NCBI RefSeq assembly: GCF_055900595.2 | Contig: NZ_CM148325.1 | Direction: 5' to 3' (one strand) | DNA length: 64,000 nucleotides | Shown here: positions 60,687 through 61,835 of the stretch, piece by piece | How the letters are laid out: each line of letters starts with the position of its first letter | How positions within the stretch are numbered: the stretch's first letter is position 1 | Notes under the pieces: generated by a model | The model's database searches: none | Told to the model about the DNA's origin: nothing | Seen by the model: the letters and a program-made list of their open reading frames with translations, nothing else | Translations under genes and position numbers: made by a program

Positions 60687-61835
60687 TCAATTAAGACTTA
60701 CTTCTTTGGCGACAGTCGGTTGTACGCTCTGATGCTTTCGCGCCTGGGCAGCCGCTTCCTCAACAGGAATATCCTCAAAGCCGAGCAACAGTGTGAGGAT
60801 AAACGACAGCACGACCGCCAGCGCCATGACGGCGAACACCCAGACGATGCTCATTGGATTCGCCGGATCGAAGAACTGCACGCTGGTAAATAATCCCGGC
60901 GCTGCCATTGAGTGGCTGGCAAGCCCCGCCATACCGGCAACCGCGCCGCAAATAAAACCGCTGATAAGACTGGCGATAAGCGGACGTTTCAGGCGGATCG
61001 CCACGCCGTATAACGCGGGTTCGGAAATCCCCGCCATAATGGCTGATGCCGCCGCAGCCAGCGCCGTCTGGCGCAGTTCCGGGTTTTTCGTTTTCCACGT
61101 CACCGCCGGTGTAATGCTGTCCACCCAGCGTTCGATATATGACAGGCACCAGGTCATCACCAGCGCCGGGATCACCGTGTAGGTGTATTTCACCGCGGTG
61201 ACCGGAATCAGGGCAAATTCAACATGTTCACCCTGGGCCGCTTTCGCCATCAGCTCAATAAAACTCGGATGTACCAGCACACCCGCAATGGCAATCGCCA
61301 GCGACATATTGGTTTTAAATTTGATGGCGGCAGAAGCAGCGACCATCAGCGGCAGGAAGAAGAAAGCACCATCACCAATCACATTGAGAATGGTTAAGGT
61401 CGGCGATCCTTTTGTCAGCACGCCGCTCATCTCGAGGATCATCGCCAGCAGTTTGACCATCGATCCGCCGATGATCGCCGGGATCAGCGGTGACATGGTG
61501 CCGATCAGCGCATCCAGGATCCCCGCACCAATGCGACGTAGCGTGAGTTTGGGTTTCCCCACGGGCTGCGTGGGCTGCATATCTCCAGGTAACAAGCTGA
61601 CAACTTCCTGAAAGGTCTGCGAAACCGTATTACCTATAATCACCTGACACTGGTTGTCACTACGTACCACACCGAGCACGCCGGAGATAGTTTTTAACGT
61701 TGGGCTGTCGATCAATGCATCATCTTTGATAACAAAGCGTAAACGCGTCATACAGTGCGTGACTGCCGAGATGTTATCAACGCCGCCCAGTGCCGCTATC
61801 ACCGAGCGTGCCAGCGCCGCATAATTTTTGGCCAT
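60687..61835 (-). CDS. ascF: PTS beta-glucoside EIIBC component, apparently shortened (382 aa)
   Basis: N-terminal EIIB with CMTRLRF phosphorylation motif and C-terminal EIIC part with GISEPALYG; the stretch between the first EIIC helices and the GITEP-type motif is only about 35 aa, so the protein looks about 100 residues shorter than the 485 aa I recall for AscF. Confidence 0.75.

Follow-up and report, generated by a model that had tools for sequence, protein, structure and literature searches.

The asc locus described here raises the question of whether its permease gene, ascF, has lost part of its coding sequence, and what such a loss would mean for sugar transport and for the silence of the operon. 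The gene lies at positions 60687..61835 on the minus strand of the window, by which we mean the whole 64,000-nucleotide stretch of DNA that was analysed (contig NZ_CM148325.1 of RefSeq assembly GCF_055900595.2), and consists of 382 codons plus a stop, specifying an EIIB domain followed by a gutted EIIC domain. A preliminary description, made from the letters alone, had read it as a continuous frame of 382 aa with a normal EIIB domain and a GISEP motif, and this reading was borne out by the open reading frame list, by a match to Pfam PF00367 and by direct inspection of the motif. It had further proposed an in-frame loss of roughly 100 EIIC codons, with the junction near residues 245-255 (nt 61070-61100), from a protein of 485 aa. 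Alignment to the intact ascF genes of K-12 and of E. coli Z0117EC0005, each 1458 bp and encoding 485 aa, agreed on each of these points. There was no full-length colinearity with K-12 AscF; the nucleotide alignment to both references showed a single gap, which measures exactly 309 bp (103 codons) and leaves the frame uninterrupted. The ascF of this E. coli strain thus carries a clean 103-codon in-frame deletion, and the core of the sugar-transporting domain is gone. Besides the gap there were no differences from Z0117EC0005, the remaining 1149 bp being identical, and 42 substitutions from K-12 across the same 1149 retained bases. The missing codons specify residues 247-349, the junction falls after residue 246 (window 61099/61100), and the protein reads ...SITPAVT-WKTKNPE... 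across it. The interval between the segment ending at residue 243 and the start of the GISEP motif at residue 269 was shortened, as the preliminary description had noted, but to 25 residues instead of the estimated 35 or so; in the intact protein it is 128.

The order and spacing of the locus, with ascG divergent from ascF and ascB, matched those of K-12 and Z0117EC0005. The ascB gene (59254..60678, minus strand) encodes a 6-phospho-beta-glucosidase of 474 aa, is intact, and specifies a protein identical to that of Z0117EC0005, a relative in which ascF is intact. On the plus strand, ascG (62095..63105), encoding a LacI-family repressor of 336 aa, is also intact and identical to that of this relative, with 10 substitutions relative to K-12. 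The 259-bp divergent control region between ascG and ascF (61836..62094) is identical to that of the intact relative too, and has 15 differences from K-12 among its 259 positions. In K-12, a transcription start for ascB has been mapped inside ascF, 1419 nt from the ascF start codon (PMC4488073); by coordinate conversion, its counterpart lies at 60726 (minus strand), downstream of the deletion, and is retained. On the other side of ascB, between it and hycI, the window has a plus-strand open reading frame of 251-257 aa without a Pfam match (58377-59150), for which the annotation of Z0117EC0005 gives a hypothetical protein; the ascB-hycI gap of K-12 is much shorter and has no annotated gene.

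Features on both sides of the junction were then assigned to the two domains. The N-terminal EIIB domain (residues ~1-85; 61581..61835, minus strand) is intact, with the phosphorylation-site Cys28 in the motif THCMTRLR, a complete match to Pfam PF00367 over residues 11-43 (E = 1e-15) and matches to EIIB domains in the PDB. Residues C28, R31 and R33 are invariant across 88 AscF family members, as is E375 of the GISEP motif. Of the EIIC domain, an N-terminal part (residues 99-246; 61098..61541, minus strand) was retained, which is supported by Pfam PF02378 and by AlphaFold helices and would correspond to scaffold helices TM1-TM4 by homology to PtsG. The retained C-terminal part (residues 247-382, equivalent to 350-485 of the intact protein; 60690..61097, minus strand) is predicted to hold HP2, TM7, TM8 and the C-terminal tail, and includes the GISEP motif (intact residues 372-376; 61017..61031, minus strand), which was read directly and aligned to PtsG T297/E298. 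Pfam PF02378 matched the window AscF in two stretches (84.9 bits), the first placing profile positions 3-140 on residues 113-238, and the intact AscF of a near-identical strain in one stretch covering profile positions 3-319 (146.5 bits). A complete EIIC domain in one stretch (TM1-5, AH, HP1, TM6, HP2, TM7-8) was not found in the window AscF. The NCBIfam AscF equivalog NF007311 also matched in two stretches, with 754.5 bits against a cut-off of 722, and its best-scoring stretch covers model positions 1-246 of 485. The 382-aa product thus passes the equivalog cut-off although about one third of the EIIC domain is lost. Its NCBI name is the generic 'PTS transporter subunit EIIC', with no pseudogene flag.

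A PDB sequence search with intact AscF returned EIIB domains only, and the EIIC domain was therefore mapped by profile and fold methods. The AlphaFold model of intact AscF (mean pLDDT 91.6, pTM 0.83) has four consecutive helices at residues 244-289, 291-307, 309-324 and 330-351, almost all of which are covered by residues 247-349. Foldseek searches with this model retrieved TreB, PtsG (8QSR) and MalT (5IWS), with a probability of 1.00 for this fold. When the family profile was compared with full-length PtsG by hhalign, only EIIB aligned, the domain order of the two proteins being permuted, and the comparison was rerun against PtsG residues 1-390. This placed AscF 247-349 on PtsG 145-269 in a weak match (hhalign probability 18%, E = 1.3e-3), which we trust only because it is anchored at the GMH (TGMH/FGLHH) and GI(S/T)EP motifs and is in line with the result of the fold search; the helix boundaries that it gives for AscF may be off by a few residues. 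In the cryo-EM structure of PtsG, a cytoplasmic loop lies between TM4 and TM5, TM5 runs into an amphipathic helix that joins the scaffold and transport domains, and HP1 with H211 and H212 comes next, followed by TM6 (PMC11393339). By homology to PtsG and from the AlphaFold model, the deletion would have removed TM5, the amphipathic helix, the hairpin HP1 and TM6. The glucose ligands reported for PtsG are E202, R203, H211, H212, N215, K257, T297 and E298 (PMC11393339), and the equivalents of the first six of these eight fall inside the deletion, including the HP1 histidine H310 (equivalent to PtsG H211), which is absent from the window AscF. The equivalents of T297 and E298 (AscF S374 and E375) were kept.

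Both flanks of the deletion are rich in Lys and Arg (for example TKNFLKP), and by homology both of its ends map to the cytoplasmic face. Two full membrane crossings and a re-entrant hairpin would then have been removed together, and because both ends are cytoplasmic, HP2, TM7 and TM8 should be oriented as in the intact protein. The predicted product would still comprise an EIIB domain that can be phosphorylated, the first of the scaffold helices, HP2 carrying GISEP, and TM7-8. This remnant may still insert into the membrane in the normal orientation, and would be unable to form the sugar-binding elevator domain. AlphaFold modelling of the 382-aa protein kept the local helices (pLDDT 88.1) with a lower pTM than the intact model (0.64 vs 0.83) and a junction pLDDT below 50; this model is uninformative on function, local helices being driven by the alignment. 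Sugar transport by the 382-aa permease has very likely been lost, since the connector between the scaffold and transport domains, HP1 (substrate binding, gating and His310) and TM6 are gone, and since the segment is present in every one of the 87 diverse homologs compared.

The longer form of the gene is the ancestral one, and the deletion is derived. When the region was compared by megablast with 5,426 complete E. coli genomes, every full match spanned 2,010 bp in the database record for a query of 1,701 bp, and the segment was present in 4,630 E. coli genomes. Outside the species, AscF is 477-485 aa long in Klebsiella, Enterobacter and Buttiauxella, and across the columns lost here each of the 87 diverse AscF homologs (30-65% identity) has 101-106 residues. 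Within the segment, P269 is conserved in 100% of the family, G308 in 99% and H310 in 94%. Neither the 120 closest clusters nor 150 representatives included a homolog with the short AscF architecture. The same genome set returned no match to an ascG-ascF-ascB query for 728 of its 5,426 members (13%), so that the whole asc locus appears to be missing in a sizeable minority of strains.

The junction itself (61098..61107, minus strand, with the breakpoint at 61099/61100) holds the sole surviving copy of an imperfect 10-bp direct repeat. In intact ascF, the two copies, GGCGGTGACG (nt 729-738 of the gene) and GGCGGTGGCG (nt 1038-1047), agree in 9 of their 10 positions and are exactly 309 bp apart; the window gene retains the first of them. 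Of the 309-bp deletions that are possible in ascF, only 1.35% would have junction homology of at least 9/10. The junction is seamless and shows neither foreign DNA nor an IS end nor a recombinase scar. The loss of a segment between direct repeats, one copy of which stays behind, is the classic signature of slipped-strand deletion. Slippage is most likely the mechanism behind the 309-bp deletion: in the recent ancestry of this E. coli lineage, 309 bp inside ascF would have been lost through slipped-strand mispairing between the imperfect repeats during replication, with one copy surviving and no scar. A different end-joining route is possible, since the repeats are imperfect and the strictly unambiguous homology at the junction amounts to 2 bp only (CG). 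Because 309 is divisible by three, the frame runs on to the natural stop, 8 bp before ascB, and no polar effect on ascB would be expected.

Other lesions of the same gene were found in public data. Among public E. coli AscF proteins there are at least eight other in-frame EIIC deletions of 12-60 codons, removing residues 109-135, 116-161, 130-178, 200-223, 214-243, 254-265, 254-313 and 365-376. The commonest is an 81-bp deletion of residues 109-135, which leaves a 458-aa product and lies between perfect 9-bp repeats (GATCCTCGA), suggesting that the same process acts elsewhere in ascF. It was found in 11 of 5,426 complete genomes, with nine high-identity matches that include named STEC O121:H19 strains, and the allele is annotated as ordinary ascF. 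Frameshifted or truncated AscF fragments exist as well (P0124, P0126, P0130, P0131 and others). Scattered neutral decay of a rarely used gene is the simplest reading of these lesions, because out-of-frame fragments also occur and because protein searches favour in-frame products.

The bearing of the deletion on the silence of the operon depends on the repressor. In later accounts of the work of Hall and Xu (1992), the K-12 asc operon is described as silent and repressed by AscG, with no known inducer, and as having been activated by an IS186 insertion into ascG (PMC3505978; PMC4403981). The preliminary description had suggested that the operon is cryptic here by a different route than in K-12, which we do not uphold: ascG is intact, and K-12-type silencing by AscG is therefore expected and probably operates in this strain too. 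The 309-bp deletion adds a second lesion, irreversible and confined to the permease, and does not stand in for the K-12 route to crypticity. Compared with crypticity of the K-12 type, the permease is here also structurally destroyed and the lesion cannot revert; unlike in K-12, inactivation of ascG alone should not restore AscF-dependent uptake of arbutin, salicin or cellobiose. On a joint action of AscB and BglF on salicin, nothing usable was found in the literature that was searched. AscB is reported to be needed for growth on cellobionic acid, for which the importer is unknown (PMC4403981). Carriers of the allele would be natural ascF-null, ascB-positive strains, and could serve to test AscF as the cellobionic acid importer.

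Two explanations would place the origin of the short gene outside the history of this lineage. According to the first, the source strain has a full-length ascF and the 309 bp were lost in sequencing or assembly. In its favour, none of the 5,426 complete E. coli genomes of RefSeq contains the junction: a 60-nt junction probe had no match at E <= 1e-12, and an 80-nt probe, run at a relaxed threshold, matched only in two pieces that together span 389 bp. The method was validated on the junction of the 81-bp ascF deletion, a positive control that was detected in 11 genomes at E = 2e-22. Against an artefact, the identical 382-aa protein was found on 72 contigs in 109 index blocks, the longest contig being 5.3 Mb, and is recorded in NCBI, ENA, Logan and UniRef (EGO7937285.1, EGO8452646.1, EGO9669476.1, EHK9586262.1 and UPI001640494A). 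Over 9.3 kb, the window is matched at 100% by GCA_027551725.1 and at 99.99% by GCA_965259535.1, contigs of two assemblies that are independent of each other, and a 10-bp repeat is far too short for assembly collapse. We consider an artefact extremely improbable. The other explanation, import of the short allele by recombination from another species or lineage that has this form natively, is just as remote and effectively refuted. No evidence in its favour was found; the retained 1149 bp are those of the intact allele of the closest relatives, the flanks are identical to theirs over 9-24 kb, and no potential donor with this architecture appeared in the homolog searches described above. Eight complete genomes are ~100% identical to the window over 24 kb and all span 309 bp more. 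In Z0117EC0005, there are only 4 true SNPs in 24.4 kb. The 90%-identity cluster of the 382-aa protein has one member sequence only, which fits a single recent origin of the allele in one clone.

Two further explanations accept the deletion and dispute its consequence or its cause. According to one, the 382-aa form would be functional, either still carrying a beta-glucoside or having been put to a new use, such as that of an EIIB phosphoryl acceptor tethered to the membrane and influencing EIIA-Glc signalling. The preserved frame, EIIB domain, Cys28 and GISEP motif would fit this, as would the cytoplasmic position predicted for both deletion ends, with which the topology of the remnant could persist, and the persistence of the allele in roughly 100 assemblies. 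We nevertheless regard a functional variant as very improbable, given that the connector, HP1 and TM6 are missing together with most of the cited ligand positions, that none of the 87 diverse homologs does without this segment, that the allele is monomorphic, as would be expected of a young clone more than of an innovation that is being maintained, and that with ascG intact the gene is probably barely expressed (PMC3505978). The other holds that loss of AscF is advantageous, with in-frame, non-polar lesions being favoured since they spare expression of ascB, a gene useful beyond the classic substrates of the operon; in-frame EIIC deletions would then have arisen independently in many lineages, killing the permease while translation runs on into ascB. 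The number of different in-frame EIIC deletions in public E. coli AscF proteins (at least nine, of 12-103 codons), the fact that one of them marks the STEC O121:H19 clone, and the intact state here of ascB, with its reported requirement for growth on cellobionic acid (PMC4403981), all speak in its favour. Ascertainment bias is strong, however, as a protein search lists near-full-length products first, and frameshifted and truncated fragments exist too. Polarity also matters less if ascB has its own promoter inside ascF, as reported (PMC4488073), and the alleles are rare, the commonest occurring in 11 of 5,426 complete genomes and the 309-bp one in none. Selected inactivation appears unlikely, though less so than a functional short form. 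If recurrent selection were true, AscF would be costly or a target (of a toxin or phage), and AscB would be worth keeping, for instance for cellobionic acid catabolism. The account that we prefer, a 309-bp slippage deletion leading to a loss-of-function permease in an operon already silenced by AscG, is held with high confidence as a whole.

Comparison of the window with Z0117EC0005 brought up several differences away from the asc locus. The window includes a type I-E CRISPR-Cas locus, in which an open reading frame of 885 aa (16247-18904, plus strand) occupies the cas3 position without interruption; in Z0117EC0005, ~1.46 kb is missing from the counterpart of window ~16019-18475, cas3 is annotated as frameshifted, and an IS421 insertion adjoins it. 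The type I-E CRISPR array of the window (24863-25502) has 11 repeats (10 spacers) and that of Z0117EC0005 has 12 repeats. The two arrays align at only 97.8% and with gaps, so that spacer content differs between otherwise near-identical strains. Near rpoS (window ~36688-36690), Z0117EC0005 carries an extra ~710 bp with an IS200/IS605-family tnpA, which the window does not have.

The lesion is ordinary lineage-specific gene decay, and no novel type of system is involved. All of its elements are well known, from the gene and its operon to the fold and the mechanism of deletion, and the very same protein had already been deposited, unremarked. The finding has little importance beyond annotation and strain typing; for the latter, the 309-bp junction cleanly marks a single clone of E. 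coli.

The closest known system is AscF of K-12 (PTS cellobiose/arbutin/salicin transporter subunit IIBC, 485 aa, NF007311), with which the window AscF shares the EIIB domain, the GISEP motif and the C-terminus, as well as the ascG-ascF-ascB locus between hydN and the hyc genes. Unlike the K-12 protein, it has no residues 247-349, which by homology correspond to TM5, the amphipathic helix, HP1 and TM6. At the level of the fold, PtsG (IICB-Glc, 8QSR) and B. cereus MalT (5IWS) have the glucose-superfamily EIIC elevator fold, as does the model of intact AscF. Intact AscF shares with PtsG the HP1 histidine motif (TGMH vs FGLHH) and the GI(S/T)EP motif of HP2, at a sequence identity of 12-15% and with a different domain order (IIB-IIC in AscF, IIC-IIB in PtsG). 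In contrast to both PtsG and MalT, the HP1 half of the binding site is wholly missing from the window AscF. Among lesions of the gene itself, the nearest parallel is the 81-bp deletion found mainly in STEC O121:H19, which is likewise in frame, within EIIC, associated with short direct repeats and a lineage marker, but which is smaller, affects the first EIIC helix and is represented in complete RefSeq genomes, where the 309-bp deletion is not.
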